A DNA stretch of 64,000 nt from Candidatus Latescibacterota bacterium (GCA_965208105.1 OZ242318.1:1792001-1856000); one strand, 5' to 3'; positions 33,304 through 55,464 are shown, counted from the stretch's first letter. Notes: generated from the letters alone by a model not told the origin. Numbers and translations: made by a program.

Positions 33304-36300
33304 TTACCCCGCTCTCACAACCCCCTGGTCGGTTTTCAATGCCGGCAGCAAGGGCTGCCGCAGGGACCAATAAGCTGCCGAGACGCTGGCGGCCAAACCC
33401 GCCCCGAGCACCAGAGACAATGACAGGACGAGGGAGAGCCAGGGGACCTGAGAGCCGGATGAAAGCACGCGTGGGGCGACCGCCACGAGTGCGGCCAGGG
33501 CGCCCATCGACATTCCTGTTCCCAGGAGAAATCCATTCTCTGCCAGCAGCATCAGCGCCAGCCGCGAATTGCTAAAACCACAAGCGCGCAGGGTGGCGAG
33601 CTCTCCGCGGCGTTCGATCGCGTTCCTCAGCAAAAGGACCCCCAACCCCAGGGTTCCCCAGAGCAATCCCAATCCTCCCAGGACCTGGAATGTAGAGAGA
33701 TATGTATTCTCCACGGCTCGATATTCGGCCAGTCTTTCGGCGGTCGGGGTGACGTCAAATCCGAACGCGCCCAGGGAGCCTTCCAGAATCGAGGACAGGT
33801 GGGCGGGCCGCTCCCCGGCAGTCTGAAGCAGGAAGTAGCCGAATCCGGAGCGATTGGGAAAGTAGTGGTTGAAATGGGCCTCCGAAATCAGCAACTCGCC
33901 CTGAAAAATACTGTCCTTCAGGAGCCCAACGAGACGCAGCCGCAGATCTCGACCCATCTCATCCTGAACCAGCAGTTCCTCGCCCAGACCCCGATGCAGA
34001 ATCCACTGGACCGAGTTGTAATCGCCTATAGCCGCAATCACCCCCGGCTCCAGCTCCTCTTCCAGCAGGCTCCATGGATTCTCCACCTCTTCCAGAGTCT
34101 GCTGGAAGAGAAAGCCGCCTCGGTGAATCAGCTCGGCGGGGACCCCCAGCAGCTTAGGCCTCCGGGGCTGGTAGAGGTTGAGGCAGCTGATATCCTCCCC
34201 TGGCAGACTCCGCAGGGAAAAGATCCGGGTTCCCGTCTGGAAGACGGCACCTTCTCCGGTGAACCCAAGCTCTTCACGCCCCCGGGGCGAGTTCAGGTCG
34301 TGGTGAAGAGGGATGTCCGCTTCGGCCAGGAGTGCGAATCCTCCATGACCCGATTCCTTGAGCCCGGAGGCAGCATCTTCGGTTGCAGTCCTGCGGTTGG
34401 CCTCCACCGCCACGATGATGAAACAGGCGCAACCGACCAGGGCGGCGCAGGCCATACTGCGCCCGTGATGGCGACTGCTGTTGCGGATTCCCATGCGGAC
34501 CAGCCTCGCAAAGTCGGACCCGGCTCCTGACCGTCCCCGTCCTCTGTCCCGGCCCAACCACAGGGAAAGGAGAGCCAGCCCTGCCACCAGCAGGAGGGCT
34601 CCGCCGGCGAAGAACAGCCCGGCGGCAACCGCCGAATCGACGAAGGAGGTCAGGGCGACCGATGCCCCGCCGGACCCCAGACTGGCGATGGCAACCACCC
34701 GCGTCCGGCTCCGGGACCCGGCCTTCCTCCGCGTGACCGTGCCGTTGAGCAGCGCGCGAACCGGCTGCCTTCCGCACTGCCTCACCGTCCACCCGATGAA
34801 GACCAGGACCACCGCGACCGAGACCATGTACCCGGAAGCAAGGCTCAGCGGCTGCACGTGCAGATCAAGGAAGGGAGCGCCTGCCGCCGCCGTCCACGAG
34901 GTGCGCAGACCCGCCGTCAGCAGCCAGGCGTAGAGGACGGCGCCTCCGACACCGACAGCACTGCCGAGTGCGGCCAGGACCCCGCCTTCGGCCATGAAGC
35001 GCCAGCGCACGAACGCCAGGGGATATCCCATTGCGAGCAGCACCCCGATTTCCTTCGCCCGCTGCTCCACCCCGAGCCTGAAAATCAATCCCACCATCAG
35101 GGCCGAAGAGAATATGAGGAAGGAGCTGAACCCCATGAAGAGCATGCCGAAGTCGGTGGCTCCGGCGGCTGCTTCCAGGCCCAGGGATTTGACCGGCTGG
35201 AACGACATGCCCTCGACCCCGGGACCTGTCCTGCGCAGCAGTTCCCGCTGAAAATGCAGCCGCGCCTGCGGCTCATCGGCATGGGCTGGGGGTCCGATCC
35301 ACATGCCGGTCAAATCGCCGAAGCGGCTGCGCCATAGACTTCTGCCGGCGCCGGCCGCTATGAAAGCTTTGGGTGCCGCGCCGAACTCATCCCAGTAGGC
35401 CTCGTCCTTGCCGCGGATGGCGCTCAGATCGATGGCAAACGGGGGATCCCAATCGGACATGTCGTCGACGTTCTGAATGCCGGGAAAGGCAGGTGTCAAC
35501 AGGGGGTCGGCGGCCATTCCCCGCAGGGCAACCACTCCGCTCAGGCGGAATCGATCCGTGGCGGTGCGGAGCATCCCCCTCGGTCCGACGACGTGGTAGG
35601 TCACCTCGATCAAGTCCCCCGCCTCGGCGCCCAGATCTCGGGCCGCCCATTCGTTGAGCAGGATCTCGTCGTCAGCCAGGAGAGGCGCAGGCGACCCGTC
35701 GGTCAACTCGAAAGCCCCGAAGGGGCTCCTTTCCCGTTGAACGGCATCCAATGCCGCAATGGCCGAATAGGGGACGCTGCGGTCTTCGAAATCTATCCTG
35801 GTAGCAAGATTGGTCAGAATGGGTTGGAACGGAGCTCCCATTTCCAGCGCCAGCTCCCGGGCCGTTGCAGTGACGTGCCCGGGGAGGATGAAGCTTTCGG
35901 CCTCCAGGGCGAAGAAACCGGATCCCGCACGCAACCTCAGGCCCAGGTCTTCCAGACGCAGCACCCGGTGCAGTGCATCCTGCAGAGTGCGCGTGGTCCC
36001 GGGTGATCCCGGGGATTCTCTGGCGACGGCAAACAGGGCATTCACCTGTCCTTCCCGCTCCAGCGCCTTCTGCAGATCGGCCAGTGCGACGAATGCATTC
36101 AACGGCAGGTTCTGATGAGGATGCAGAGCCAGGCGGCCGAGCCCGCGGTCAGGGACGACTCCCGACAGAGTGAGCCGGAGAGTCTGGGTGACCGCGGCGG
36201 AATTGCGCCTGCCGAAAACGTACTCTCGATGGATCTCGCTGCGCCTTTCAATGGACAGAAGAATGGGATCGCCTATCTCCACCTGCAGCTCTTTCTGCAG

Positions 36301-36738
36301 GGACTGATTGATGACCACCGGCGCGAAATGGCGATCCGGCATTCCGCCCAATCGCTCCAGCACCATGGCCGCCGGCCCCTCGCGCTCTTCCAGGCTTGCA
36401 AAGTCCCGGTCGACCCCGATCACCTGGACGCGCGACGCCCGGTTGCGGGTGTGAGCGCCCAGTGCGCTTCCACTCAATAGAATGGCAGGAACGGCACCTT
36501 CGAAGGAGGCCGCAAAGGAGGGCTCGGCGGCAAGGTCCGCGCTCAGCCCTTCGCGGAAGAAGGGCTGAGCCACCAGGGCGTGGTCGATTCTACCGAGCCT
36601 CTCCAGGGTCAAGTCCCGCAAGCTGCCCCGGACGGAATCTCCCACCAGAAGTGCGCCTGTGAGGACGGCTGTGGCAGCCGCGGAGGACAGCAGCACCGCC
36701 GTATGCAGGCCGCGGAAATGAATCAGACTTCGACGCAA
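33304..36738 (-). CDS. Large FtsX/MacB-like ABC transporter permease (duplicated, about 1140 aa)
   Basis: 'GAL.VGDSVRGSL', two FtsX motifs 'EQR.KEIG.L.A.G' and 'ERR.ELA.LRA.G', two large periplasmic domains. Confidence 0.88.
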   Translation of the reverse strand: MRRSLIHFRGLHTAVLLSSAAATAVLTGALLVGDSVRGSLRDLTLERLGRIDHALVAQPFFREGLSADLAAEPSFAASFEGAVPAILLSGSALGAHTRNRASRVQVIGVDRDFASLEEREGPAAMVLERLGGMPDRHFAPVVINQSLQKELQVEIGDPILLSIERRSEIHREYVFGRRNSAAVTQTLRLTLSGVVPDRGLGRLALHPHQNLPLNAFVALADLQKALEREGQVNALFAVARESPGSPGTTRTLQDALHRVLRLEDLGLRLRAGSGFFALEAESFILPGHVTATARELALEMGAPFQPILTNLATRIDFEDRSVPYSAIAALDAVQRERSPFGAFELTDGSPAPLLADDEILLNEWAARDLGAEAGDLIEVTYHVVGPRGMLRTATDRFRLSGVVALRGMAADPLLTPAFPGIQNVDDMSDWDPPFAIDLSAIRGKDEAYWDEFGAAPKAFIAAGAGRSLWRSRFGDLTGMWIGPPAHADEPQARLHFQRELLRRTGPGVEGMSFQPVKSLGLEAAAGATDFGMLFMGFSSFLIFSSALMVGLIFRLGVEQRAKEIGVLLAMGYPLAFVRWRFMAEGGVLAALGSAVGVGGAVLYAWLLTAGLRTSWTAAAGAPFLDLHVQPLSLASGYMVSVAVVLVFIGWTVRQCGRQPVRALLNGTVTRRKAGSRSRTRVVAIASLGSGGASVALTSFVDSAVAAGLFFAGGALLLVAGLALLSLWLGRDRGRGRSGAGSDFARLVRMGIRNSSRHHGRSMACAALVGCACFIIVAVEANRRTATEDAASGLKESGHGGFALLAEADIPLHHDLNSPRGREELGFTGEGAVFQTGTRIFSLRSLPGEDISCLNLYQPRRPKLLGVPAELIHRGGFLFQQTLEEVENPWSLLEEELEPGVIAAIGDYNSVQWILHRGLGEELLVQDEMGRDLRLRLVGLLKDSIFQGELLISEAHFNHYFPNRSGFGYFLLQTAGERPAHLSSILEGSLGAFGFDVTPTAERLAEYRAVENTYLSTFQVLGGLGLLWGTLGLGVLLLRNAIERRGELATLRACGFSNSRLALMLLAENGFLLGTGMSMGALAALVAVAPRVLSSGSQVPWLSLVLSLSLVLGAGLAASVSAAYWSLRQPLLPALKTDQGVVRAG

Positions 36739-37394
36739 TTACCGCCCTTCAATTCGATGCGGCGGTCAAAGGAGGCCGCCAGGTCGAGATTGTGGGTCAC
36801 GGCTATCAGAATGGTTTGCTCAGACCGGTGCAGCTCCAACAGCAGACCGGCCACCGCAGCCGCGGTGTTGTGGTCGAGATTGCCGGTGGGTTCGTCGCAC
36901 AGCAGCAGACGGGGATTGTTGACCAGGGCGCGGGCTACGGCGACGCGCTGGGATTCGCCTCCGGACAGCTCACCGGGAAAGTGGTGGAGGCGGTGCGAGA
37001 GGCCCACCGCATGGAGCAGCTCAAGCGCCCTTTCCTCCACATCTTCGCCCTTGCGCCTGAAGGCCATGGTTGGAACCAGCACGTTTTCGAGGACGGAATA
37101 TTGGGGCAGGAGGTGGTGATCCTGGAAGACGAAGCCGATGATCTGGTTGCGGAATGCCGCCACTTCGCGTTCGCGGAGAGCGAAGGGGTCCCTGCCGGCT
37201 ATGGTGATCCTTCCCGAGGAAGGGGGATCCAGGGTGCCAATCAGGTGCAGCAGGGTGCTTTTTCCCGAACCCGAAGGCCCGGTGACGGCAAGGGACTGCC
37301 CCTGGGTCAGCTCAAAGGAAACGCCATCGAGGACCTGGACACCTGCAAAGCTTTTGCCGACCTGGGAGACCCTGAGGGTGAAATGGTCATCCAT
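36723..37394 (-). CDS. ABC transporter ATP-binding protein (LolD/MacB-like)
   Basis: 'GPSGSGKSTLL', 'IGFVFQ.HHLL', 'ELSGGE.QRVAVARAL', 'DEPTGNLD'. Confidence 0.95.
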   Translation of the reverse strand: MDDHFTLRVSQVGKSFAGVQVLDGVSFELTQGQSLAVTGPSGSGKSTLLHLIGTLDPPSSGRITIAGRDPFALREREVAAFRNQIIGFVFQDHHLLPQYSVLENVLVPTMAFRRKGEDVEERALELLHAVGLSHRLHHFPGELSGGESQRVAVARALVNNPRLLLCDEPTGNLDHNTAAAVAGLLLELHRSEQTILIAVTHNLDLAASFDRRIELKGGNCVEV

Positions 37395-37815
37395 GGGAAG
37401 ATGGAGCCTCTTCAATCTTTTGGGCGATAAATCCAGGAATGGGAACAGCCCTCATTCTTCCCCCTGGACTGCACATGCAGCAGGCCACCTTCAGCTGCCC
37501 GCGAGCAACCTCCACCTCCCCCCGCGCAAAGGAGAAAGCATAGGTAAGGGACCTGGCGCCCACCTTCAGGACCTTCAGAGAGACATCGAGCACATCCTCG
37601 AATCTGGCCGGATGCAGGTATTCGCACGAGGTCGTCAGCCGGGGCCAGCTGAGGTGGCCTTCATCCCGTTCCATAACAACGCTCAGCCCCAGGGCGCGGA
37701 GGAATTCATGCTCGACAGATTCCATCAGGACGAAGAAGCGGGAGAAGTGGACAATGCCGGCCATGTCCGTGTCGGCGAACTCCATTCTCCGCTGGGTCCG
37801 GTATTCGTATGCCAC
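37387..37815 (-). CDS. Acyl-CoA thioesterase (4HBT/YbgC hot-dog family)
   Basis: 'F.DTD.AGIVHFS.FF..ME..E', 'C.Y..PARF.D'. Confidence 0.9.
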   Translation of the reverse strand: MAYEYRTQRRMEFADTDMAGIVHFSRFFVLMESVEHEFLRALGLSVVMERDEGHLSWPRLTTSCEYLHPARFEDVLDVSLKVLKVGARSLTYAFSFARGEVEVARGQLKVACCMCSPGGRMRAVPIPGFIAQKIEEAPSSHG

Positions 37816-37822
37816 GGCGGTC

Positions 37823-37988
37823 TAGTTTCCCGTCGCAGAGATAGGTTGACGAAATTGGGCCGCCGAGGCGCCAGGCTCACAAGGCGCCTGAGCGAGTTGT
37901 ACCAGTGGTGTACGGCGAGTGATGGCAACGCCGTGAGCCGGGATGGATCGGCGGGATAATGGCGACATATTTCTGCGACGGGAAACTA
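37823..37988. repeat. ERIC-like palindromic element/MITE, copy 1 (166 bp)
   Basis: Terminal inverted repeats TAGTTTCCCGTCGCAGAGATA / TATTTCTGCGACGGGAAACTA (20 of 21 match). Core CAAGGCGCCTGAGCGAG..GTAC..GTACGGCGAG..GGCAACGCCG shared with copy 2. Confidence 0.8.
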
Positions 37989-38456
37989 ATTTCCAGGTCT
38001 GTATAGAGTCACCAGGAAGCCGCCCAGAGCGGCCAGAAGAATTCCCAGCACAAACGGCCAGCGCAGTGCACCCAGCCCGGCGGCGGGAGGATGCACCGCC
38101 AGGGCCAGGAATGCGTTGACCACGGGTGCGCCGGCGAAGACGATGGACATGACCACGCTGGGCGTTCCCCGGGCCCCGAAGGCGAGCAGAACTCCCAGGG
38201 CACCCAGGGCGCCCGCAATGCCAGCCGCTGTTGACCACCCCGCTCCCTTGGCCGAGAAACTCCAGGAGGCCCCCCCAATCCACAGCAGGACTGCCGACCC
38301 TGCCACCGCGGTCAGCATATACGCGACTCCCACGAAGAAGTAGGCCTTGTAACGTCCGAAAACCGGATCTCCCATGGCCAGTTGCCCCGTGTGCAGTAGA
38401 ACCCCGTAGCACCCCCACGCGCCAACCGCAATCAGAGCATAAATCATCCAGGTCAT
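37986..38456 (-). CDS. Small integral membrane protein (5 TM, DMT/EamA-like half domain)
   Basis: Hydrophobic helices, 'WG.YG..LH.G', 'G.P..VM.IVFAGAP.VNA'. Confidence 0.65.
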   Translation of the reverse strand: MTWMIYALIAVGAWGCYGVLLHTGQLAMGDPVFGRYKAYFFVGVAYMLTAVAGSAVLLWIGGASWSFSAKGAGWSTAAGIAGALGALGVLLAFGARGTPSVVMSIVFAGAPVVNAFLALAVHPPAAGLGALRWPFVLGILLAALGGFLVTLYRPGN

Positions 38457-38589
38457 CGCCGGACTCCCTTCGCTGTTTCTATTCCCCGCGACGCGGCCAT
38501 GCGCAGCGAAATTCCCTTGCAGACCGGCCAGTCGGGGGATCAGGGTGAACTTGCACTGCCGATTTCAACCTTCCTCCACGGAGGGATAC

Positions 38590-38754
38590 TAGTGCCTGCT
38601 TGCGTAAGTAAGCGTACGAACGAGGGCGCAGAAGCGCCCGGCTCGCAAGGCGCCTGAGCGAGTCGTACCTGGAGTGTACGGCGAGGGAGGGCAACGCCGC
38701 GAGCCGGGATGCAGCGGCGGCCGAATTCACGCGGAATTGCGCAAGCAGGCACTA
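38590..38754. repeat. ERIC-like palindromic element/MITE, copy 2 (165 bp)
   Basis: Terminal inverted repeats CTAGTGCCTGCTTGCGTAA / TTGCGCAAGCAGGCACTAG (18 of 19 match). Same core as copy 1. Confidence 0.8.
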
Positions 38755-40041
38755 GCCCAGGAACTCCTCGTACAGCGCCAAAGTCGCCGCCGCCATCACC
38801 TCGTCCCCGAACCTTCGATGCACCGCATCCTTTCCCCGTCTTGCCAACCGCTCTCGCAGTTCGGCATCATTCATCAACTCCTCTATGGCCGCGGCGACTG
38901 CCTCAGCGGAGCCCGGCCGCACCAGCAGTCCGCCTCCCGTCGCTTCGATCAACTCGGGGAAGGCCCCGTGGCGCGGCTGCACCACCGGCACTCCGTTGGC
39001 CAGGGCTTCCAGGACGAAGAGCCCCTTGGGCTCCTTGTAAACCGTCGGCACGGACAAAATGTGAAGGCCGTTGAGAAATTCGATCTTGCCCCGGCGGTCG
39101 ACCGCGCCCCAAAATTCAACCTCCCCTCTCAAGCCCCATGCATCAATCCTGCCCATCAGCCTTTCAAAGTACGGGCGGTCCCTCTCGCCGAGATAGCCGG
39201 CGATTTTGAGCTTGAGGGCCCCGGGACCCAGGCGCTTGCTCAGCAGGTTAAATGCCTCAACCAGCAGGTGAAGCCCCTTCTCCGGACAGATGCGGGCAAG
39301 GTAGCCCACGCAAAAAGCGCCTCCACCCAGGTCCTTCCTGCCTTCGCCGTGGCCCTGCAGGTTCAATCCCAGCTCGACCACCCTCATCCTCTCGGGGGCA
39401 ATGCCCAGAAAATCGGCCATGAAATCGGCATAGTACCTGCAGGGAGCCACGAACCCATCCACGTCTTGGCAGCGCCGGCGCAGAATCTCCAAAGCCCGAG
39501 ACCTGTAGGGCTCGACCATCTGCTGCAGGAAGAGATCCTCCCCCTGCAAGGCGCAGAGGACCGGGATCCCCAGCCTTCTCTTGATCTCCCGGGAAAATCC
39601 GGCAAACATGGAATTGGTGAGCTGGACCACGTCGGGTCCGTAGTCGTCCCCGAGCCATCGGACCAGCTTGGCCAACTCCTTGCGCTGTCTTCCCTCCTCT
39701 CCCCTCAGCACGGAGACCGTGAGCGCTCCCAGGTCCTCCGCCCGGGTGGATGGACTGAAACGGGAAAGCCCGTTCAGCAGGGAGGGACGATCGAAGAGGC
39801 GGTCCAGCACCCACGGCGTGTGGCGGAAAAGGGACGCCTTCTGCTGCAGGTAGACGTTGATGCCCCCGTAGAAAATGCGGTCCAGGCTGACGTTGGCGTC
39901 ATCGGTGCGCAGGGGCGTGTAGGTCGGAATGAGAGCGACCTCGGCGCCCAGCCTCTGCAAGGCCGCGGCCAGAGCGTTGTCGCGGATACAGCTTCCGCAG
40001 TACATTCCGGCGGCGCCGGCGGTGATATACGCGACTCTCAT
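38752..40041 (-). CDS. Glycosyltransferase family 4 (GT-B) with N-terminal CxxC motif
   Basis: 'GYLARICPEKG.H.L', 'EPKGL..LEA.A.G.PVV', N-terminal 'GAAGMYCGSC.RDN'. Confidence 0.88.
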   Translation of the reverse strand: MRVAYITAGAAGMYCGSCIRDNALAAALQRLGAEVALIPTYTPLRTDDANVSLDRIFYGGINVYLQQKASLFRHTPWVLDRLFDRPSLLNGLSRFSPSTRAEDLGALTVSVLRGEEGRQRKELAKLVRWLGDDYGPDVVQLTNSMFAGFSREIKRRLGIPVLCALQGEDLFLQQMVEPYRSRALEILRRRCQDVDGFVAPCRYYADFMADFLGIAPERMRVVELGLNLQGHGEGRKDLGGGAFCVGYLARICPEKGLHLLVEAFNLLSKRLGPGALKLKIAGYLGERDRPYFERLMGRIDAWGLRGEVEFWGAVDRRGKIEFLNGLHILSVPTVYKEPKGLFVLEALANGVPVVQPRHGAFPELIEATGGGLLVRPGSAEAVAAAIEELMNDAELRERLARRGKDAVHRRFGDEVMAAATLALYEEFLG

Positions 40042-41507: not shown

Positions 41508-41728
41508 TGCTTTGCCTCCCCGTCGGAGTCCAGATGGCCGGGCCAGGCACAGGTGACCAGCAGCACCATCAGCAGGGCGGCCACCAGGCAGAAGCCGATG
41601 TGATAGAGCAGGCCGATGGGCAATCCCAGAACGAATCGAGAATCGTGCCAGAACCACAAGTCGTTGTGCAGGAAATAAAGGACGACTAGGGATAGATAAA
41701 GTAGTTTGCGGATAGATGAATTCTTCAA
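41504..41728 (-). CDS. DUF3311-like small 2-TM partner of SSS transporter
   Basis: 'LH.D.W.W......LGLP..L.YH', located directly upstream of the SSS gene. Confidence 0.75.
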   Translation of the reverse strand: MKNSSIRKLLYLSLVVLYFLHNDLWFWHDSRFVLGLPIGLLYHIGFCLVAALLMVLLVTCAWPGHLDSDGEAKQ

Positions 41729-41750
41729 TGCAACTCCTTCCAGTGCCCCT

Positions 41751-44305: not shown

Positions 44306-44363
44306 TCGACCCACATGGCCCTGCCGGATCCATGGGCATCCACCACGCCGGGCGAGGGAACCA

Positions 44364-45638: not shown

Positions 45639-45669
45639 TGCGACCTCCCGGATTCTCCTGCACCGCATT

Positions 45670-48127: not shown

Positions 48128-48185
48128 ATCGCTCCCTTCCGCCTTTCCCTGAAATGAGGTTCCGGAAGCGGTTTCGACGCGGCCT

Positions 48186-49301: not shown

Positions 49302-49308
49302 GGGGGAA

Positions 49309-50733
49309 TCAGCTCCCTAGAGCCTGGAGAGCTCTCTGGCGGTAGAGAAATTCGAAGAGGTTGCCCTCGTGGGGCTGGTCCCATGAAACCCGGTTGGTGC
49401 CGATGGGACCCAGGTTCAGGCGCTCGATCTGGGCGCAACTCAGCAGCTCCACGATCAACTCCCGGTTCCCGGTGATCGCCGTGGCGACCAGGGTCGGACC
49501 GATGCGCTTGAGGATCTGCTCCTGGGGGACCTGTACCACGCTGACGAAGGGGAAGAGAAATTCCGCGTTGGCCAGCGGGTGCTCGCCATCCTCGCACCAG
49601 AGGACGGTGGGCAGCAGAAAGGTGCAGCCCTCCCTTTCGACTATCCGGTCCCCACTCCTGAACCGGGCGGTAAGGTCCTCCGCGCCCCCCATCTCGAGCC
49701 GGGCGTCGATCAGCTCCGTCAGTCTCTGCGCCACCTCCGGCCGAGCGAAGGCCGCGACCCGCGCCTGCGGATGGTCCAAAGGCAGAGCTTCAATCCGCGC
49801 CAGGCGCTGCGCCAGGGCGGTGGCGATCTCCAGCCCGTGGCGCGGCACCCAGATGCCGGAAGCGTTGATGCACGACCTGCCCCCGTTCTCGGCCACCGAG
49901 GCCACCATGAGATCCAGATGGTCTTCCCAGCTCTCGGCCTCGTCCGTACCGAAAATGATCTTGCTGCGCCCCGGCCCATGGATCTGCACCCGGGGATCCC
50001 CGGCCCAGGACTCCACCGTGGCGTCGCCTCCGAACAGCATGGAACGGCCGCAGCGCAGGAGAATTTCCGAGGCTCCGGCATAATCGGTGGGGTAGTATCC
50101 GAATGCCTCGGGAGGACAGCCCGCGGCCATGAAAGCCCGGGCAAGACGCAACGGCGTCCAGGGTTCCTCCCTGCCGGGTTTGAGCATCACCGGGACCTTC
50201 AGCGCTAACGAGGGGGCCCAGAGAGAGTGCACCCCGGGAGAATTGCTGGGGAGCACCACCCCCAGGGCGCGGGTCTGGCAGATGTAGCTCAGGGGGCGCC
50301 CGTGATCGAGGTCCCATCCTCCGTCGAGGACCCCGAGGTGGAGCCCGCGCGTCAGACCGTCCAGCACCGCATCCATCTGCGAGAGAACCTGGTGAATCTT
50401 CTCCATGTTGCCGCGGCAGAGGGTCTCGGGGAGACCCGTGGTGGCCGAGGTCTGGCGCACGTAATCCTCCGGCCCCTGGGCATCCTCGTCCACGGGAAGG
50501 TCCGCCTCCATGAACAGGCGGGCGGCTTCCCCGCAGATTCCCAGCAGCTGCGCCGCCGAGAGGTCGGCGAGGGCGCGCTGGTTCTCCGCCGCGGAGGCCA
50601 GGTCCCTCGCCACCAGTCCCCTGTTGGCCTGGCTGACCAGGGCGACGGGCTCACCCGAGCCCAGGTGGCACAACCTGGCCGTATCCAGGCTCCTGTAGGG
50701 GGTCCCCGCGCGCAGTATGGGGATGTGCAACAT
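49309..50733 (-). CDS. Aldehyde dehydrogenase-fold protein, GriD/EhpG-like reductase subunit
   Basis: 'VLPSNSP', 'KP...EP.T', catalytic 'NGGRSC.NAS', 'E.LFPF'. 'HGPGRSK' replaces the usual 'ELGGK'. Confidence 0.82.
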   Translation of the reverse strand: MLHIPILRAGTPYRSLDTARLCHLGSGEPVALVSQANRGLVARDLASAAENQRALADLSAAQLLGICGEAARLFMEADLPVDEDAQGPEDYVRQTSATTGLPETLCRGNMEKIHQVLSQMDAVLDGLTRGLHLGVLDGGWDLDHGRPLSYICQTRALGVVLPSNSPGVHSLWAPSLALKVPVMLKPGREEPWTPLRLARAFMAAGCPPEAFGYYPTDYAGASEILLRCGRSMLFGGDATVESWAGDPRVQIHGPGRSKIIFGTDEAESWEDHLDLMVASVAENGGRSCINASGIWVPRHGLEIATALAQRLARIEALPLDHPQARVAAFARPEVAQRLTELIDARLEMGGAEDLTARFRSGDRIVEREGCTFLLPTVLWCEDGEHPLANAEFLFPFVSVVQVPQEQILKRIGPTLVATAITGNRELIVELLSCAQIERLNLGPIGTNRVSWDQPHEGNLFEFLYRQRALQALGS

Positions 50734-50734
50734 T

Positions 50735-51823
50735 CTAATATACCCCCACCACCACCGACTCCTGCAGCTCCGACAGCAGGCGCAGATTCCTCACCCCGTC
50801 CCAGGGATAGGGAGCGATGGGCGCCACCCGCTCCGCCTCGTCGCGCTCGAGAAAGCGGGGCATGAAGAATTCCTTCGTCAGGGTGGTCAGCATGACCCGG
50901 CCCCTCTCGCCGTAGCCCACCGCATGGTGCGGAGGAGCGGTGGAGACCAGCTCGATGACCGCCCGCGGCTGGGGGGGATAGTAGGTGATGGCGTATCCGT
51001 CAGCCGGGTCGAAGGGCCTGGAGCAGGCCAGCCCCATCAGGGTGTTGCCATACGCGGGCACGAAGTCCACACCCGGGGCGAGCTCCTCGCGGGCGAAGCG
51101 ATGGAACTGGGCGTCCATCTCGGTGCCGCCGCAGAAAATCCCGGTGATCCCTGCCCTGGACAAGGAAATCTTCCCGCCCAGGGACTCCAGAAGCCTCGGT
51201 GTGGTGAACAGGCAGCGCACATTCTCGTGGGAGCGGAGGACCTGCAGGGCCTGGTCGACGACGTGGGTTTTGTACTCCTCCAGCTCGCGGTGCTTGCCGT
51301 GCTTTATCAGCTTGTTCACCCAGCGCGGGTCCAGGTCCACCATGAAGCAGATCCCTCCCCTGAGCTGGGCGAGATACTCGACGGCCAGGCGCAGGCGCCG
51401 CGGCCCGCTCGGTCCCAGCATCAGCCAGTCTGCCCCGCGCGGAAAGGCCTCCTCGGAGAGAGTCGCGCTGAACAACTCGTAATCGATGCGGAAATCGCGG
51501 ACGTTGAGGCGGTACTTGGGTACGCCGGTGGACCCCCCGGTTTCGAAAACGGAGACAGGCTCGCCGGCCAACCCCCGGGGCAGCCAGCGCCGCACCGGCC
51601 CCCCGCGCAGCCACTCGTCCTGGAAATGGCCCAGGAGCTTCAGGTCGCGGTAGCCGCCGATCTCGCGGACAGGGTCGAAGTCCAGTCCCGCGGCGAACTC
51701 TAGCCAGAAGGGACAGCCGGTCCGCTCTCCGAAGTGCCAGCCGACCATCTCGCGAACGTGGGCGTCCAGGCTTCGCCTCGCCGCCTCGATCTCCTCCGCC
51801 GAAGGGCCCTTCGCCCCGTTCAT
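50735..51823 (-). CDS. GriC/EhpF-like atypical adenylate-forming enzyme
   Basis: 'WHF..TG.PFWL', 'FDP', 'ETGGSTGVPK', 'D.DPRWV', 'TTP', 'GGTE', 'YG.T', 'V.YGERG.V', 'ERD.A.R', C-terminal 'GVY'. This motif series matches, from recall, EhpF (Pantoea phenazine cluster) and GriC (grixazone cluster). Confidence 0.82.
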   Translation of the reverse strand: MNGAKGPSAEEIEAARRSLDAHVREMVGWHFGERTGCPFWLEFAAGLDFDPVREIGGYRDLKLLGHFQDEWLRGGPVRRWLPRGLAGEPVSVFETGGSTGVPKYRLNVRDFRIDYELFSATLSEEAFPRGADWLMLGPSGPRRLRLAVEYLAQLRGGICFMVDLDPRWVNKLIKHGKHRELEEYKTHVVDQALQVLRSHENVRCLFTTPRLLESLGGKISLSRAGITGIFCGGTEMDAQFHRFAREELAPGVDFVPAYGNTLMGLACSRPFDPADGYAITYYPPQPRAVIELVSTAPPHHAVGYGERGRVMLTTLTKEFFMPRFLERDEAERVAPIAPYPWDGVRNLRLLSELQESVVVGVY

Positions 51824-51835
51824 GGCCCGATCCCC

Positions 51836-53263
51836 CTATTCCCCCTCGATAGCAAATAGCATGTTGCGGCTGGCGATGTAGAGCACCCCGTCGCGGGCCG
51901 TCGGCGTGGTGTATACCGCACTGCCCATATTGACCTCGTAGAGCAGCTCCAGCTTCCTGCCCGCCCTCAGCACGGCCACGTCGCCGTCCTCGTCGCCGAT
52001 GTAGACCTTGCCGTCGGCCACGAGGGTCGATCCCCAGACCGCCGCGAAGGTATCGTAGGTCCAGTATTTCTCCCCGCTGCGGGCGTCGAGGCAATAGACG
52101 AATCCGCTGAGGTCCGCGGTGTAGAGCAGCCCGTCGCTGATGGCCGCGGTGGACAGGGTGCGGTTGTAGTCCCGGTCCCCCAGATGCCAGACCACCCCGC
52201 TGGCACTGACGTCCCCTCTCCCCTTCGCGTCGATGGCCCACAGGTGGCCTACCCCTTCCCCGTGCTCCGGATCCTGCCCCACCCCGACGTAGACCTTGTC
52301 ATCATAGAACACGGGGGTCGAGATAATGGCGTTCCGCGTTCCCCTTCCCCCCAGTTCCCACACGGAATCCTTGGGATTGCAATCGAACTTCCAGATGAGC
52401 TCCCCGGTTTCCGGCTCCATGGCGTAGATCCAGCCGTCGCCTCCCGGAAAGATCACCTGGCCCTTGCCCTCGACCACACCGTAGGCAGGATTGGACCACT
52501 GCCCGTGAAGGATGCGGTCCGCCGGGGAGTTGTCTTCCCACACCACCCTGCCGCTCTCCTTGTCCACCGCGACAAAGCTGGGGGCAAACGGAGTGGGAAT
52601 GTGGACATGCCCCTCGTCCACCCCGTTTCCGGTGACGACGAAGATCAGATTGCCGACGCCCAGAGGCGAACAGGTGGCCAGGTTGTGGGGAAAGACATCC
52701 AGCTCCGCGATCATGTCCAGCTTCCATATCACGTCGCCGTCGATGGCGCTTGTGTCCTTTTCCGAGACGAAGGGACCATCGTTTTCGCCGTCCAGGAAGC
52801 CTTCCGTATCGACGCACACCAGCTCGCAGCGGTTGGAGACATAGTAAAGGCGGTCGCCTTCGATGAAGGGGGTGGAGCAGACGCCCTGCCTGGGCCAGTC
52901 GTTGACTCTCCCCGCGGGGAGCTTGGTGTGGGTGGACTGCCACAGAAAGCGGCCGTCCGCCGCCCCGAAGGCCATGATCACTCCGCGGTCGCCCTTCAGC
53001 CCCGGGTTGCGCATACCCTGGTTGTTGGTGCCGACGAAGACCTTGTCCCCGATGATCACGGGACCGGCGTAGGTTTGCGACCCCAGGGGCGCCGTCCACT
53101 TGATATTCAACCCGGTGGCCGGGTCCCATCTCTCGGGCAAACCTCTCGCCTCCAGCGCCAGGTTGCGCGCCGGTGTGAACCCCCACATCGCGGTTTCCTC
53201 GGCGGCGGCGCCCATGGCCGCGGCGCAGACCGCGCCGATCGCCGCCCTCGCAAATCGTCCCAT
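51836..53263 (-). CDS. Secreted PQQ-binding-like beta-propeller protein (copy 2) with acidic insertions
   Basis: Signal peptide, 'NIKW.A.LGSQTY', 'G.CSTP', 'VTGNGVDE.H', 'HGQWS.P', 'GQDPEHGEG.G'. Confidence 0.82.
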   Translation of the reverse strand: MGRFARAAIGAVCAAAMGAAAEETAMWGFTPARNLALEARGLPERWDPATGLNIKWTAPLGSQTYAGPVIIGDKVFVGTNNQGMRNPGLKGDRGVIMAFGAADGRFLWQSTHTKLPAGRVNDWPRQGVCSTPFIEGDRLYYVSNRCELVCVDTEGFLDGENDGPFVSEKDTSAIDGDVIWKLDMIAELDVFPHNLATCSPLGVGNLIFVVTGNGVDEGHVHIPTPFAPSFVAVDKESGRVVWEDNSPADRILHGQWSNPAYGVVEGKGQVIFPGGDGWIYAMEPETGELIWKFDCNPKDSVWELGGRGTRNAIISTPVFYDDKVYVGVGQDPEHGEGVGHLWAIDAKGRGDVSASGVVWHLGDRDYNRTLSTAAISDGLLYTADLSGFVYCLDARSGEKYWTYDTFAAVWGSTLVADGKVYIGDEDGDVAVLRAGRKLELLYEVNMGSAVYTTPTARDGVLYIASRNMLFAIEGE

Positions 53264-53265
53264 GG

Positions 53266-55464
53266 TCAATCTCCCGCCCATACCTTGACGTTGTCGTAGT
53301 GGATTTCAGCGGGTGAGTATCCGTACAACCCCGGACTCCCCTCCCGGTTCGGCAGGGGGTCCCGGGCGGTGATCGTCCACTCCCCGGGCTCCTCTTCGTT
53401 CCGCCGCCAGACCTTGCCCCTGACGATGGCCACTTCATCCCCCACCTCCACCTCCATCTTCATGGTGTACCAGACGCCGGGCTCCCAGTCGAAGGGGGAG
53501 GTAACGGCCATCCTCAGGTCCGAAGCCCAGGACCGGATCTGCAACTGCTGGTGGTTCCCCATCATATCCAGGGTGTAGCGGTTGGCGATCAATCCCATGT
53601 CAGGGCGCCTGCGCTTGTCCCAGGTTCCCATCAAATCGGCCTGAACGGTATACCCTCTCATGCCGGGAGGACCGAGGTAGACATTTGAACGGTGCAGCCC
53701 CACCCTGGCCGGCGGCTTGACCAGCACCTTGTTGCCGTGCAGGTCGCGCACCTTGAACTTGGTTCCCGCGCCGACCCAATGCGCCGGATTCCCACCTTCC
53801 TCCACCTCCTCGAAATCCTCGCTCCAGGGCAGCCCGGGGACGACCCGCACCCGCGCCCTGCCGCCTGCTCCCTCGGCCGCGGCCCGGACTATCCCCGCCT
53901 GGGCGCCAGCGCTACCGTTCAGAATCAGCCTCCCACCCGCGCCCATACTTCCCTCCAGACCCTCGAGGGTCCACTCGACCGCCGGCGCCTCCACGGAACG
54001 CCCTTCGTGGTCGAAGGCGAGCACTTCGAAGCGGACCGTATCCCGAGGCTGCGCCACCACCTCCGCCGGAACCACGAGCAGGGAGGCGGCCGGCCTCTCT
54101 TCGCCTGCGGCCTCCACTGGGAATTCCGGCACCACGGCCGGCCCGGCCACCGGCCCGGCCTCCCTATCCCCCAGGCAGTACAGCCCCTCTTCGGTGGCAA
54201 AGTAGATGCGGCCATTGGCCAGAGCCGGAGAACCGAAGATTTCGGCGGGGCGTCCTTCCCTGGTCCTTATCTCATCCCTGTCCAGTTTCAGGGGATGGCC
54301 TCCCCGGACTTCGAGAATGTGGAAGGATCCGTTGACCTCGGTGGCGTACAGCTTGCCGTCGGCCCAGACGGGGGATCCCCTGCCTACGGTTCCCAGGCCA
54401 TACTGCCAGAGGTCCCTCCCCGTATCCGGGTCGAGGCAGTGCAGGTTGGCGCCGTTGTCCACCAGGTAGAGGCCGCCGCCGCCCATGGCCGGAGAGGAGT
54501 AGCCCACCGCGAACTCGTCATAGCGCCAGATTTCATGGGTGGCGGTGACGTCTCCCCTGCCGCCGCCGTCGATGCATACCACCCTGCCCATGGCGGTGTT
54601 GTCCACGTTTTCCTCGCTGTGGGCGGCATAGACGCGGCTGCCCTCCACCAGCACCGATGAATTGATGCCGCGCCTGCTCAGCCGGAAACCCCACACCTTC
54701 TCCCCCGTTCGCGCCGCCATGGCGTAGATGGCGCCGTCGGCGTTGCCGCCGATCAGCAGCCGCCGCCCCCCGATGGCGGCCGCCACCGGAGTGGAGTAGG
54801 TGGTGTCCAGCGGGCGTCCCCCCGGCGCCGCAACCCACACCACCGCGCCGCTGCGCTTGTCGAAGGCAAAGTACCGATGCCTGGGCACGGCCTGGTCTCC
54901 CCAGCCGAGATTGAGAAAACTGATTATTACCTGGTCTTCGTGTACCACGGGAGTATGGACCCGCCCGCCGTAGCCGGAGATGCGGCCGAACTCCTCGGTG
55001 AGGGAACGGGACCACAGGACCTCCCCCTCGGGGTCGAGGCACAAAAGGAGGCCGCCGACCCCGTGGACGTAGATGTTCCCGGTCTCCGGATCACCGGCGG
55101 GGCTGGCCCACCCCACCCTGTTGAACGGAATGGTCGTGTGAAAGACGTTGAAGCGGTGTTCCCAGAGCAGCTTCCCGCTCGCCGCGTCGAAACAGGCCAC
55201 CAGCTCCTGCTCGGTGATGCCCTCTCCCCCGCGGCCGGTGACGCATACCCTGCCGTCGAGGACGACCGGGGTTGAGCGGCCGCAGAAATCCGCCTTCCAT
55301 ATCAGGTTTTCACCCTCGGCAGACCAGCGCGAAATAAGGCCCGTTTCCATGGACGCGCCATTCTGCCAGGGACCCCTCCAGCCGGGCCAGTCGGCAGCGC
55401 CGGCGGCCGGGGGACTCGCCGCCGCGGAGAGGAAGAATACCAGAGAAACTGCCTTGATTCGCAT
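53266..55464 (-). CDS. Secreted PQQ-binding-like beta-propeller protein (copy 1) with C-terminal Ig-like and jelly-roll-like domains
   Basis: Signal peptide, 'DWPGWRGP', propeller blades, Ig-like 'LVVPAEV....G', C-terminal 'WYTMKM.V...RGKVW.R...EP..W...GSPGLYG...YDNVKV'. Confidence 0.8.
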   Translation of the reverse strand: MRIKAVSLVFFLSAAASPPAAGAADWPGWRGPWQNGASMETGLISRWSAEGENLIWKADFCGRSTPVVLDGRVCVTGRGGEGITEQELVACFDAASGKLLWEHRFNVFHTTIPFNRVGWASPAGDPETGNIYVHGVGGLLLCLDPEGEVLWSRSLTEEFGRISGYGGRVHTPVVHEDQVIISFLNLGWGDQAVPRHRYFAFDKRSGAVVWVAAPGGRPLDTTYSTPVAAAIGGRRLLIGGNADGAIYAMAARTGEKVWGFRLSRRGINSSVLVEGSRVYAAHSEENVDNTAMGRVVCIDGGGRGDVTATHEIWRYDEFAVGYSSPAMGGGGLYLVDNGANLHCLDPDTGRDLWQYGLGTVGRGSPVWADGKLYATEVNGSFHILEVRGGHPLKLDRDEIRTREGRPAEIFGSPALANGRIYFATEEGLYCLGDREAGPVAGPAVVPEFPVEAAGEERPAASLLVVPAEVVAQPRDTVRFEVLAFDHEGRSVEAPAVEWTLEGLEGSMGAGGRLILNGSAGAQAGIVRAAAEGAGGRARVRVVPGLPWSEDFEEVEEGGNPAHWVGAGTKFKVRDLHGNKVLVKPPARVGLHRSNVYLGPPGMRGYTVQADLMGTWDKRRRPDMGLIANRYTLDMMGNHQQLQIRSWASDLRMAVTSPFDWEPGVWYTMKMEVEVGDEVAIVRGKVWRRNEEEPGEWTITARDPLPNREGSPGLYGYSPAEIHYDNVKVWAGD

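Follow-up and report, generated by a model that had tools for sequence, protein, structure and literature searches.

The 17-gene block

The window, that is, the whole 64,000-nucleotide stretch of DNA that was analysed, which comes from a sponge-associated bacterium, contains 17 genes between positions 33304 and 55464, all of which were found to exist and to be co-oriented on the minus strand. The spacing between neighbouring genes ranges from -29 to +58 bp, with overlapping gene ends at eight junctions, and only two wide gaps depart from this pattern: 295 bp between the genes for a GT4 glycosyltransferase and a membrane protein, and 170 bp between those for the membrane protein and a thioesterase. 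The earlier note had described 17 co-oriented genes separated by 60 bp or less except at two gaps with inserted palindromic elements, and the measured spacing agrees with that description. Each wide gap carries one copy of a 166-nt MITE-like repeat with terminal inverted repeats of 24-27 nt, located at 38589..38755 in the first gap (27-nt arms) and at 37823..37988 in the second (24-nt arms). A 97-nt core is 86% identical between the two copies, and at least 40 copies of the element are present in the genome at 94-96% identity. The cluster of a same-genus genome is free of the repeat, and the corresponding gaps there measure 91 and 9 bases. The intergenic sequence at 55465..55644, which lies between the block and a divergent cupin gene on the plus strand, is presumed to be the promoter region of the operon.

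Searches of the 17 products against Pfam and NCBIfam returned no PKS, NRPS, carrier-protein, terpene or Phz domain, as expected from the earlier claim that the block has no megasynthase core, and the family names given to the genes all hold (EhpF-like by the match to solved EhpF). The description of the pathway as self-contained does not fully hold, as the flavin reductase needed by the halogenase is encoded outside the block and the block contains no precursor-making gene.

Family matches and fold comparisons show four of the products to be predicted exported beta-propellers of the BamB-like type. Propeller 1 (53266..55464; 732 aa; PQQ_2, 155 bits) has a signal-peptide-like N-terminus and an extra C-terminal part of ~190 aa that matches no Pfam family, and for which a language model gave a lead to clusters of 3-keto-disaccharide-hydrolase/GH16-like jelly-roll proteins (0.96, 151 shared features). 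Propeller 2 (51836..53281; PQQ_2, 86.7 bits), an 8-bladed protein, is unusually conserved, with a mean column identity of 74% and many invariant His, Asp and Glu residues in an alignment of 20 sequences, and with 60-77% identity across phyla. Its AF2 model (pLDDT 82.5) most closely resembles BamB (TM 0.77-0.79 at 17% identity); tetrathionate hydrolase and PQQ alcohol dehydrogenases come next. Propeller 3 (47012..48127) matches Beta-prop_ACSF4 (206 bits, cut-off 133) and PQQ_2 (136.8 bits). A start at 48415 was rejected in favour of 48127, where a purine-rich stretch precedes the ATG and a signal-peptide-like sequence follows it; the latter is most likely the true start, which places a 58-bp gap rather than an overlap after the iron-type alcohol dehydrogenase gene. 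Propeller 4 (44364..45668; PQQ_2, 140 bits) is the least fixed member.

Reductase pair, tailoring enzymes and transport genes

The gene at 50735..51823 encodes an EhpF/GriC-like adenylating enzyme of 362 aa without the ANL C-terminal domain (mean identity in its alignment A1, 78%). It has no Pfam match and no LuxE or LuxC family match, and over residues 20-362 it matches the solved EhpF structures 3l2k/3hgu (E 8.6e-44, 153 bits), resembling EhpF rather than LuxE or FadD. Its partner, encoded at 49309..50733, is a GriD/EhpG-type reductase of the ALDH superfamily (Aldedh, a weak 45.5 bits) in which the catalytic Cys288 is invariant. While hydrolytic ALDHs have a water-activating Glu, the partner has a His at that site: His252, which is invariant, lines up with the LEAGGKS-motif Glu of the ALDH KauB. 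A complex of the two proteins was predicted with an ipSAE of 0.76, compared to 0.00 for the best of three controls; as a rough guide obtained with own alignments, 58 of 80 solved complexes and 2 of 110 mismatched pairs score this high. The prediction runs shared at least 86% of contacts, the pLDDT of the partner was at least 91, and interface residues in invariant columns include 239, 240, 242, 243, 247 and 248 of the adenylating enzyme and 15, 37, 39 and 40 of the partner. The active site and the predicted complex show the composition of a carboxylate reductase split over two proteins. GriC/GriD form an acyl-AMP that is then reduced to an aldehyde, as summarised in PMC10179220, citing Suzuki 2007. 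For known relatives of the pair, the substrates are phenazine and aminohydroxybenzoate acids; at 153 bits to EhpF, these are little guide to the substrate here, which was counted against the aromatic reading given below. The adjacent iron-type alcohol dehydrogenase (48186..49301; Fe-ADH, 144.5 bits; ADH_Fe_C, 104 bits) is nearest in NCBIfam to ErcA (239 bits) and lactaldehyde reductase (195 bits), all below cut-offs.

The flavoprotein encoded at 41751..42986 belongs to the Trp_halogenase family and is the sole strong match to that family in the genome. Among solved halogenases, it scores between 198 and 155 bits, highest with 8zop (198 bits) and then with 5buk, 3e1t, 7fco (ChlB4), 5dbj (PltA), 5bul and 3i3l (CmlS). 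Because of these matches, and because Lys69 and the W-x-W-x-I-P motif are each found in 17 of 17 homologues, the protein is, judged by sequence, a true flavin-dependent halogenase. The neighbouring PaaK-type aryl/acyl-CoA ligase (42983..44314) matches phenylacetate-CoA ligases in the PDB over its full length (185 bits) and scores below the cut-offs of the NCBIfam models for PaaK (241/209 bits), FlxY (157 bits) and BagE/FevW (114 bits). The HemN-like radical SAM enzyme (45670..47019; Radical_SAM and HemN_C), with its CxxxCxxC motif in 36 of 36 homologues, is nearest to ChuW/HutW (175 bits), STM4012 (173 bits) and HemN (163 bits) in NCBIfam, all below cut-offs, and in the PDB it scores 108 bits with both HemN and the methyltransferase NocN. 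The hot-dog thioesterase of the 4HBT/YbgC type (37387..37815; 4HBT_2, 39.6 bits; YbgC, 64 bits) has Asp15 and Asp17 in 13 of 13 homologues.

The GT4 glycosyltransferase (38752..40041; Glycos_transf_1, 99 bits) matches solved GT4 enzymes only in its donor-binding half. A presumed importer is encoded by the sodium:solute symporter (SSS) gene (40038..41510; SSF, 151 bits), the start of which is overlapped by 7 bases by the gene for a small DUF3311 membrane protein (41504..41728; PF11755, 33.7 bits, cut-off 30). The nearest models to the symporter are PanF (133 bits) and PutP (123 bits), below cut-offs; it is 58-90% identical in relatives and is missing from all three clusters that were sampled in one family of the phylum. 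The gene at 37986..38456, which was preferred over a rejected 198-aa frame at 37822-38418, encodes a membrane protein of 156 aa with about five hydrophobic spans. It matches no Pfam family, is 64-87% identical in relatives, and may be an EamA-like half-size transporter, as suggested by a language-model lead to Atlas clusters labelled "putative EamA domain-containing protein" (0.98). The last two genes encode an ABC ATPase of the LolD/MacB/DevA kind (36723..37415; ABC_tran, 120 bits; LolD, 249 bits against a cut-off of 308; YbbA, 192; DevA, 158) and a permease of 1144 aa with two fused FtsX domains (33304..36738). Hydrophobic spans place the outside domains of the permease at residues 33-533, which is 500 aa, and 781-1018; the AF2 model of the first (pLDDT 85.4) has its best fold matches with the periplasmic domains of LolE/LolC, MacB and YbbP over ~230-250 of 501 columns. 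The family and fold matches show the pair to be a predicted Lol/MacB-type (type VII) machine. A separate, better LolC/E-like gene (308.7 bits) lies elsewhere in the genome, and the machine in the block is therefore an extra one.

Conservation of the block

Colinearity with the gene order of the window was found at 79 of 80 related loci, counting matches on the same strand with at least 40% identity and at least half coverage. In the phylum of the window, the block from propeller 1 or the adenylating enzyme to the FtsX permease was found in 8 of 10 genomes (10 genera, 3 families). Of 5 further genomes, 4 carry it too. The order is kept across several little-studied phyla in spite of insertions between members (restriction-modification genes, OLD-like ATPases, transposases, sulfatases and a 25-kb block). 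The flanks are common only to the same-genus genome and in part to one same-family genome, so the conserved unit ends at the boundaries of the 17 genes. Because the order is kept despite insertions and the flanks are not conserved, these comparisons show that the block is, as far as gene order can tell, an old, co-inherited unit and no mosaic. This is a positive outcome for the co-conservation that the earlier note proposed to look for. Its term "orphan", in the sense of rare, does not stand: the adenylating enzyme has more than 8000 homologues, the best 120 of which are 73-97% identical, and 98 of 168 genomes from the phylum encode it.

Soil Acidobacteriota carry only a compact core that consists of the reductase pair, the GT4 (at 11 of 12 loci) and the ABC/FtsX machine, and this core occurs in both soil and marine lineages. 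Among the relatives, one cluster has the halogenase with no detectable ligase (G005) and another is without the thioesterase (G047). The ligase-halogenase-thioesterase chain is thus not strictly kept, which was counted against the aromatic reading presented below. In 6 of 14 extended clusters, a gene for a TonB-dependent receptor separates the radical SAM gene from the PaaK-like gene; a propeller 4 homologue stands next to it in some of these clusters and is missing from others.

Candidate product and its proposed path to the envelope

We consider it about an even chance that the 17 genes form a single operon whose product is a small aromatic metabolite, made in the cytoplasm and handed to the envelope. 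The best reading, held with the same balanced confidence, is a line for the tailoring, reduction, glycosylation and export of a hydroxybenzoate-type acid, each chemical step of which we infer from sequence and structure models. An aromatic acid of the 4-hydroxybenzoate kind would enter via the SSS/DUF3311 symporter, and the PaaK-type ligase would make its CoA thioester. The ring would then be modified by the halogenase, which would draw reduced flavin from a reductase elsewhere, and by the HemN-like enzyme; CoA may hold the acid during these steps, taking the role of a carrier protein. The thioesterase would free the decorated acid. The adenylating enzyme would then activate the acid with ATP, the partner would take it on Cys288 and reduce it to the aldehyde with NAD(P)H, and the iron-type dehydrogenase would convert the aldehyde to a benzyl-type alcohol. 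After addition of a sugar by the GT4, the glycoside would leave the inner membrane through the EamA-like protein and the ABC/FtsX machine and reach the four propellers in the periplasm, and these may bind or process it. Because this line contains two acid-activating enzymes, it has to assume that the acid passes first through a thioester and then through a free form, a point counted against it.

The genome has no PF01947 or PF04345 match and so no recognisable chorismate lyase, and the acid is therefore probably imported. Among the 14 extended clusters, only one (G004) has a chorismate lyase: the gene for an Rv2949c-like chorismate pyruvate-lyase immediately precedes the ligase gene there. A 2019 preprint (bioRxiv 10.1101/723874) describes a planctomycete making 3,5-dibromo-p-anisic acid, in which a chorismate-lyase-like gene adjoins the best halogenase candidate, and proposes that pair for the dibrominated benzoate. 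A 2026 preprint reports clusters with PQQ-like, rSAM, GT, TE and TonB genes in the same phyla, recovered by a custom rule that pairs a halogenase with an adenylase. With these two preprints touching parts of it, the cluster has not gone entirely unremarked; a literature search found no paper that characterises it. The order of steps proposed earlier (import, activation, reduction, tailoring, glycosylation, export to propellers) agrees with the testable parts, namely a reductase-type active site with predicted pair binding, a bona fide halogenase and a Lol/MacB-type exporter. Among the three product classes that the earlier note named, an aromatic small molecule is preferred to a fatty glycolipid on the basis of the nearest characterised relatives.

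An envelope glycolipid is an unlikely product. A fatty or lipid acid would be converted to an aldehyde or alcohol, glycosylated by the GT4, extracted in a Lol-like manner and carried by the propellers to the outer membrane, comparable to heterocyst glycolipid export by DevBCA or lipoprotein release by LolCDE. The resemblance of the first FtsX outside domain to LolE/LolC and of the ATPase to LolD and DevA, the YbgC-like thioesterase, the composition of the acidobacterial core and the role of BamB-like proteins in outer-membrane biogenesis all point this way, as does the housekeeping-like spread of the cluster in many diderm phyla. However, none of the 36 genomes of families f5-f14 carries the cluster, and since entire families and genera of the phylum do without it, it is not essential. 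In addition, the adenylating enzyme matches EhpF, Pfam and NCBIfam searches of the block found no fatty-acid synthase, acyltransferase or carrier-protein genes, and the ligase, halogenase and HemN-like enzyme all have relatives with aromatic substrates.

It is likewise improbable that the cytoplasmic enzymes supply the propellers with a small glycosylated aromatic ligand, which would be exported to serve them as a prosthetic group or to carry metal back into the cell via a TonB-dependent receptor, following the logic of PQQ with quinoproteins or of siderophore cycles. The invariant residues and high identity of propeller 2 suggest a catalytic or ligand site, and its fold matches include PQQ alcohol dehydrogenases and tetrathionate hydrolase, but the best match is the non-enzymatic BamB. 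The halogenase scores on QhpG (137 bits) and LodB (96 bits), which act in the maturation of protein-derived quinone cofactors, and the GT4 on the thiol-cofactor enzymes BshA (54 bits) and MshA (47 bits); these scores are far below cut-offs, and true halogenases score higher. The receptor, at one fixed place in its six clusters, fits uptake of a large or scarce compound better than a simple secreted metabolite and was counted against the aromatic reading, but the cluster in the window is without it, and the block encodes neither a precursor peptide nor a chelating-group enzyme nor a periplasmic binding protein.

Uptake followed by detoxification or salvage is very unlikely. A (halo)aromatic acid from sponge tissue or soil, perhaps acted on by the propellers in the periplasm before uptake, would be made into a less harmful alcohol glycoside and expelled, which is consistent with importers inside the operon, with the receptor of the six clusters, with a genome that has no recognisable route to 4-hydroxybenzoate and with representation of the stretch in sponge metagenomes. 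A halogenase with all signatures intact adds halogen and does not remove it, however; detoxification does not usually involve radical SAM tailoring or a dedicated type VII machine, and soil and marine lineages share the core in very different chemical surroundings. Chance juxtaposition of the propellers, reductase trio and transport block as unrelated small operons with no common product is highly improbable and, by synteny, largely refuted: relatives tolerate unrelated genes between members and some lineages carry sub-blocks alone, but the order is kept across phyla, gene ends overlap, and the block is conserved while its flanks are not.

For the aromatic line, we infer an old core, made up of the reductase pair, the GT4, the ABC/FtsX machine, a propeller and the EamA-like protein, to which the ligase, halogenase, radical SAM enzyme, thioesterase, iron-type alcohol dehydrogenase and importers may have been joined as a tailoring add-on.

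Make-up and conservation of the operon

Seventeen minus-strand genes lie between 33304 and 55464, and Pfam and NCBIfam searches of their products bore out every gene family that the earlier note had listed. The first gene encodes propeller 1 (PQQ_2, 732 aa), one of four exported BamB-like beta-propellers, and is followed by the genes for propeller 2, the EhpF/GriC-like adenylase (50735-51823, minus strand; 362 aa, without a Pfam family), its ALDH-superfamily partner (49309-50733, minus strand; Aldedh, 45.5 bits), an iron-type alcohol dehydrogenase, propeller 3 (probable start at 48127; Beta-prop_ACSF4, 206 bits), a HemN-like radical SAM enzyme (Pfam Radical_SAM and HemN_C) and propeller 4. Genes nine and ten encode a PaaK-like ligase and a Trp_halogenase-family flavoprotein, genes eleven and twelve a DUF3311 protein and a sodium:solute symporter, gene thirteen a GT4 glycosyltransferase, gene fourteen a small membrane protein (37986-38456, a 156-aa frame), and genes fifteen to seventeen a 4HBT thioesterase, an ABC ATPase and a 1144-aa FtsX permease. 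A 198-aa frame at 37822-38418 was also considered as the membrane protein; it is arginine-rich and belongs to no family, and the overlapping 156-aa frame was preferred.

The intergenic spacing ranges from -29 to +58 bases, with eight overlaps, and the exceptions flank the membrane-protein gene, where the gaps are 295 and 170 bases. Each of these wide gaps holds one copy of a 166-nt element (37823-37988 and 38589-38755) with inverted ends of 24-27 nt, which corresponds to the two palindromic elements that the earlier note had placed between genes. The element is present in at least 40 copies, 94-96% identical, scattered through the 4.85-Mb genome (153 candidates at first look, 40 of them scored), and a same-genus genome has neither insertion, the corresponding gaps being 91 and 9 bases. 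For these two reasons, the elements are recent MITE-like insertions into a tight operon. In sponge DNA and RNA runs the read depth at both repeat copies was far above that of the rest of the stretch, as expected of a repeat.

Between 32500 and 39000, 2 promoter-like sites were counted versus 1.0 ± 1.1 in shuffled sequences, and 7 terminator-like sites versus 5.2 ± 2.6; Rfam and tRNA scans of the window returned no match. Metatranscriptome contigs from two libraries (107 and 48 records, at least 90% likeness) touched 27 and 26 of the 30 operon bins, at low depth, with DNA carry-over possible and no silent control stretch for comparison. The contigs listed are short (188-464 letters), cover of this kind need not mean expression or co-transcription, and uncovered bins are uninformative.

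The stretch is represented in sponge and marine metagenomes. Homologues of the adenylase number more than 8000, with identities of 73-97% among the best 120, and a relative is encoded in 593 of 601 candidate stretches from species-representative genomes. Within the phylum of the window it was found in 98 of 168 genomes, being common in three families (48/75, 20/22 and 28/31) and absent from ten others (0/36). The cluster is therefore widespread and not the orphan it had been called.

Gene order was scored with the 17 proteins of the window in 80 loci, taking 10 kb on each side, and the matches were colinear with the window in 79 of them. This order recurs in uncultured Latescibacterota-type, Poribacteria and Acidobacteriota genomes, so that the co-conservation proposed earlier as a check on the cluster extends over several phyla. 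The ALDH gene lies downstream of the adenylase gene in 67 of the 80 loci, and propeller 2 precedes the adenylase in 63 of the 68 non-compact loci. Longer stretches were examined in 15 genomes: all 17 genes are present in order in two, 16 of the 17 in four more, and the remaining genomes are missing propellers 1 and 2, the symporter pair, the thioesterase, or the ligase gene. In one genome no more than three members lie within 40 kb, another carries a 25-kb insertion after the Fe-ADH gene, and in a third the cluster is divided among contigs. A compact form occurs in 12 soil Acidobacteriota loci and consists of the adenylase with ALDH (11 of 12), GT4 (11), ABC (10) and FtsX (6, a count limited by the locus ends); in some of them a propeller and the small membrane protein are nearby. 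In many relatives foreign genes (restriction-modification, OLD-like ATPases, toxin-antitoxin, transposases, sulfatases) are wedged between the members, and the order of the members survives. The block is a genuine unit. The flanking genes (cupin, SMP-30-like and M16 peptidase; nicotinamidase-like, NaPRTase-like and NAD synthase) recur only in the same-genus genome and, for some of them, in one same-family genome, which sets the borders of the operon at 55464 and 33304.

In the adenylase tree (81 rows, unrooted), the compact clade of soil Acidobacteriota separates cleanly (100/100), and the Poribacteria rows mostly cluster together. As the tree lacks a true root, and as the phylum labels of NCBI conflict with the genome taxonomy of some MAGs, it is not used to name a donor or to orient a transfer. 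MAGs titled Gemmatimonadota (for example, the one carrying locus L046) share a phylum-level, and even a genus, group with MAGs titled Candidatus Latescibacterota, and the NCBI labels are treated with care for this reason.

Several observations concern the surroundings and the gaps of the operon. It seems to attract insertions of foreign genes in nine related loci (L005, L013, L036, L038, L043, L089, L104, L107 and L111), where the inserted genes are OLD-like AAA_21/DUF4276 or DUF3226 pairs, BsoBI-type and Mrr-type restriction genes, DUF4143 ATPases, and IS1595- or IS4-type transposases. Two tandem DUF3857/transglutaminase-like genes separate the adenylase from its ALDH partner in L036 (11007-14966) and L043 (11166-15002), and in some Poribacteria-labelled loci the same gaps hold a TPP-dependent enzyme, a PhyH-like dioxygenase, a kinase-like protein and a creatininase-family protein. 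In the window, a minus-strand group at 28795-33287 begins 16 bases after the FtsX gene with an isochorismatase-family (nicotinamidase-like) gene, continues with a nicotinate/quinolinate phosphoribosyltransferase-like gene and, 900 bases further on, includes a glutamine-dependent NAD synthase. Together these genes resemble a set for NAD salvage; apart from the window, they lie next to the cluster only in the same-genus genome. A promoter-like site is at 33320-33293. On the other side are genes for a Wzy_C-domain (O-antigen ligase-like) protein of 880 aa (61298-63940, minus strand), then an anhydro-N-acetylmuramic acid kinase (60123-61301) and a PreP-like M16C peptidase (57100-60108). These neighbours are envelope-related, and their conservation with the cluster stops at the genus level.

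The predicted carboxylate reductase, the halogenase and the probable substrate acid

A PDB search aligned residues 20-362 of the adenylase with residues 21-366 of EhpF (E = 8.6e-44, 153 bits). The protein lacks the ANL C-terminal domain and is, by sequence, a stand-alone adenylase of the EhpF/GriC type. A LuxE/LuxC fatty-acid reductase was considered as well; no Pfam match to it was found even at E values up to 10, and EhpF/GriC was preferred. EhpF/EhpG of the D-alanylgriseoluteic acid pathway in Pantoea agglomerans and GriC/GriD of the grixazone pathway in Streptomyces griseus are two-protein carboxylic acid reductases, in which an adenylase of about 360 aa is likewise paired with an ALDH-superfamily partner. 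According to PMC10179220, GriC makes the acyl-AMP, which GriD then reduces to the aldehyde. The match to EhpF amounts to no more than 153 bits. In contrast to both known pairs, the pair in the window sits with exported propellers, a GT4 enzyme and a type VII ABC machine, outside a phenazine or phenoxazinone cluster, and Pfam and NCBIfam searches of the operon products found no Phz or GriH/GriI genes.

In a 25-sequence alignment, Cys288 of the ALDH catalytic motif is kept in the partner, and an invariant His252 aligns with the water-activating Glu of ordinary ALDHs (KauB motif). This active site, compared here with ordinary ALDHs, fits an enzyme that would reduce rather than hydrolyse its thioester. 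By the kept cysteine, the lost glutamate and its pairing with the adenylase, the protein ranks as an ALDH-like reductase of the GriD/EhpG type. The adenylase and partner genes are adjacent with a 1-base gap, and the predicted complex of the two proteins scored 0.76 versus 0.00 for the best of three controls. Of 80 solved complexes 58 attain the mark for this score, as do 2 of 110 mismatched pairs, counts that are rough because custom alignments were used. The prediction runs agreed in at least 86% of contacts, the pLDDT of the partner was at least 91, and several predicted interface residues are invariant columns on both chains. The modelling thus supports binding between the adenylase and its partner. 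The PDB search gave EhpF only as single-protein entries, and we know of no solved heterocomplex from which the predictor could have remembered the interface.

The flavoprotein matched solved flavin-dependent halogenases at 198-155 bits (8zop, 5buk, 3e1t, ChlB4, PltA, 5bul and CmlS), compared to 63 bits for geranylgeranyl reductases. Entry 5buk is Mpy16, 3e1t is CndH, and 5bul and 5bva are Bmp2. The closest solved enzymes (PltA, CmlS, ChlB4, Mpy16, CndH and Bmp2) act on substrates bound to carrier proteins, and the window halogenase resembles them in that its catalytic Lys and WxWxIP motif are aligned and invariant. Lys69 and W-x-W-x-I-P were each found in 17 of 17 homologues, and GGGPAG (GxGxxG) in all 14 homologues that cover that region, the motif definition being the one quoted from PMC6644159. 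The genome has no other strong match to the halogenase family. No flavin reductase is encoded within the operon, and two Flavin_Reduct genes are located elsewhere in the genome, so the pathway is not as fully self-contained as had been supposed.

In contrast to carrier-dependent halogenase systems, the operon encodes no carrier protein and has a CoA ligase and a thioesterase in its place. The gene for the full-length PaaK-type ligase overlaps the halogenase gene by 4 bases. Its product scored 241 and 209 bits versus the PaaK equivalog cut-offs of 700 and 646 and, judged by these scores, is PaaK-like and not PaaK itself. The hot-dog thioesterase is encoded downstream of the halogenase, and both of its aspartates are kept in 13 of 13 homologues. 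The overlapping ligase gene, the downstream thioesterase gene and the lack of an encoded carrier suggest that CoA may stand in for the carrier protein and that halogenation may take place on CoA. Against this, one related cluster has no detectable ligase and one has no thioesterase. The radical SAM protein has the CxxxCxxC motif in 36 of 36 homologues and a HemN_C domain, which makes it HemN-like (class C); it resembles HemN and the methyltransferase NocN equally, and it does not reach the cut-off of any named NCBIfam subfamily.

To our knowledge, every relative of the adenylase, of the ligase and of the halogenase that has been characterised acts on aromatic substrates. In one of the 14 extended clusters (longer stretches from related genomes), a gene for an Rv2949c-like chorismate pyruvate-lyase lies directly before those for the ligase and the halogenase. 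A comparable arrangement is the baaA/baaB locus of Planctomycetales strain 10988, in which a flavin halogenase adjoins a chorismate-lyase-like gene; a halogenated 4-hydroxybenzoate-type product was isolated from this strain (Panter et al., bioRxiv 10.1101/723874). The locus is proposed for the 3,5-dibromo-p-anisic acid that this cultured planctomycete makes, its chorismate-lyase-like gene standing beside the best halogenase candidate, an assignment made without a genetic test. The Baa model differs in having no reduction, glycosylation or export steps, and the genome of the window differs in having no detected lyase. The aromatic relatives, the chorismate lyase of the one cluster and the planctomycete locus are hints that point to a hydroxybenzoate-type acid as the substrate. 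An aromatic product is more likely than the lipid that had been listed earlier among the possible product classes.

Neither chorismate-lyase family had a match in the genome of the window, whose completeness by marker count is 93.9%. This organism therefore probably takes the acid up from outside, which would give a role to the symporter in the operon as the protein that brings it in. Six of the 14 extended clusters have a TonB-dependent receptor gene between the radical SAM and PaaK-like genes (L089, 13125-15218; L093, 12427-14604; L095, 16800-18932; L104, 1084-4032; L112, 3782-5902; L115, 15069-17186), where the window has only propeller 4.

The Lol/MacB-type machine and the exported propellers

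The ABC ATPase is nearest to LolD, at 249 bits versus a cut-off of 308, and then to YbbA and DevA; it thus falls short of a LolD assignment. In the permease two FtsX halves are fused, and residues 33-533 and 781-1018 form the outside domains. Pfam searches of both outside domains, in the window and ten relatives, gave nothing significant. An AF2 model of the first domain (pLDDT 85.4) matched the periplasmic domains of LolE, LolC, MacB and YbbP in Foldseek (E values down to 3.5e-10, over approximately 230-250 of 501 columns); the other columns make up an addition that has no assignment. The FtsX transmembrane regions and the Porter/Sabre-type periplasmic domain place the machine in the type VII (MacB-like) ABC superfamily. 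It shares the LolD-nearest ATPase, the FtsX domains and the periplasmic-domain fold with LolCDE, MacB and YbbAP, but its permease halves are fused in one chain and its outside domain, at 501 aa, has roughly double the usual length. No adaptor of the MacA/DevB type and no LolA gene was found in the operon. In a genome search the permease did not match the LolC/E model TIGR02212, and another gene in the genome scored 308.7 bits on it. Because this separate and better LolC/E-like gene exists elsewhere, the operon machine is an extra, specialised one. The small membrane protein resembles half-size EamA transporters, which is a lead only.

The four propellers scored 47-146 bits on the NCBIfam BamB model (cut-off 285) and 26-79 bits on models of PQQ-dependent dehydrogenases (cut-offs 480-833), and so belong to neither group by these models. 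Propeller 2 is 60-77% identical across phyla, with many invariant His, Asp and Glu residues. Its AF2 model (pLDDT 82.5) is eight-bladed and nearest to BamB (TM 0.77-0.79, 17% identity), with tetrathionate hydrolase and PQQ alcohol dehydrogenases lower in the list. The conservation pattern suggests a functional site; the fold alone cannot separate an enzyme from a scaffold. BamB, the outer-membrane beta-barrel assembly lipoprotein, has the same eight-bladed fold and Pfam PQQ_2 in common with the propellers, but here four distinct paralogues are fixed in an enzyme operon. On inspection of the sequences, a lipobox cysteine was not evident in propellers 1, 3 and 4. The C-terminal part of propeller 1 had no significant Pfam match in the window or in ten relatives, and a language-model lead alone suggests that this tail may be DUF1080-like.

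The score of propeller 3 exceeds the gathering threshold set for the propeller domain (PF13570) of animal ACSF4/AASDH, a protein that fuses an adenylation and a carrier domain to PQQ-like repeats. This match could be a Rosetta-stone hint that the propeller family works with acyl-adenylate chemistry; the window propeller is, however, exported.

Relation to known pathways and significance

A sponge-metagenome study defined a "Halo_AMP" pseudoclass that requires a flavin halogenase and an AMP-binding enzyme, and counted 840 such clusters, none of which matches MIBiG (Loureiro et al., 2026, bioRxiv 10.64898/2026.08.03.742642). The clusters come partly from Latescibacterota, Poribacteria and Acidobacteriota MAGs, and PQQ-like domains occur in them "at high frequency" beside rSAM, GT, TE, TonB, ABC and toxin-antitoxin genes. 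The study goes on to pursue a different family, which bears P450s, and its text does not name an architecture of the window type; the Halo_AMP set probably includes this cluster without describing it. In the literature on Poribacteria halogenases, grixazone carboxylic acid reductases, and dibromo-p-anisic acid and planctomycetes, no paper characterising the cluster was found. We know of no rule in the standard cluster finders for a two-protein carboxylate reductase with a halogenase, a Lol/MacB-type machine and four propellers. The parts are of known kinds; what sets the system apart is its breadth and the unexplained link between aromatic chemistry in the cytoplasm and a Lol-like machine with four propellers in the periplasm.

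As a functional analogy only, the plant monolignol route (4CL, CCR, CAD, UGT, an ABCG exporter and wall polymerisation) also leads from an aromatic acid through a CoA ligase to an aldehyde, an alcohol, glycosylation, ABC export and extracytoplasmic processing. The families are, however, mostly unrelated, and the reduction in the window would proceed via an acyl-adenylate and not a CoA ester. Also unlike the plant route, the operon has no oxidase or peroxidase, and no polymer is known in these bacteria. It is a speculative and rather improbable proposal that the operon forms a complete "inside-to-outside" chemistry system without a characterised counterpart. A halogenated hydroxybenzyl-type glycoside would be made in the cytoplasm and delivered by the Lol-like machine, and the four propellers, which are ancient and each conserved in its own right, would be enzymes that use it, perhaps as a new prosthetic group in phyla lacking PQQ or as a monolignol-like building block to be unmasked and joined into the envelope.

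As far as sequence analysis reaches, the earlier interpretation of the operon as a whole holds, with the exception of its orphan status and full self-containment, and with an aromatic product ranked above a lipid one. The operon unites a rare, predicted two-protein carboxylate reductase and a genuine halogenase with a Lol/MacB-type machine and four secreted propellers. If its product were found, thousands of "hypothetical" genes would gain a function, part of the unassigned halogenated aromatics of sponges and sediments might be explained, and the very large PQQ_2/BamB-like propeller families of these phyla would have a first role.
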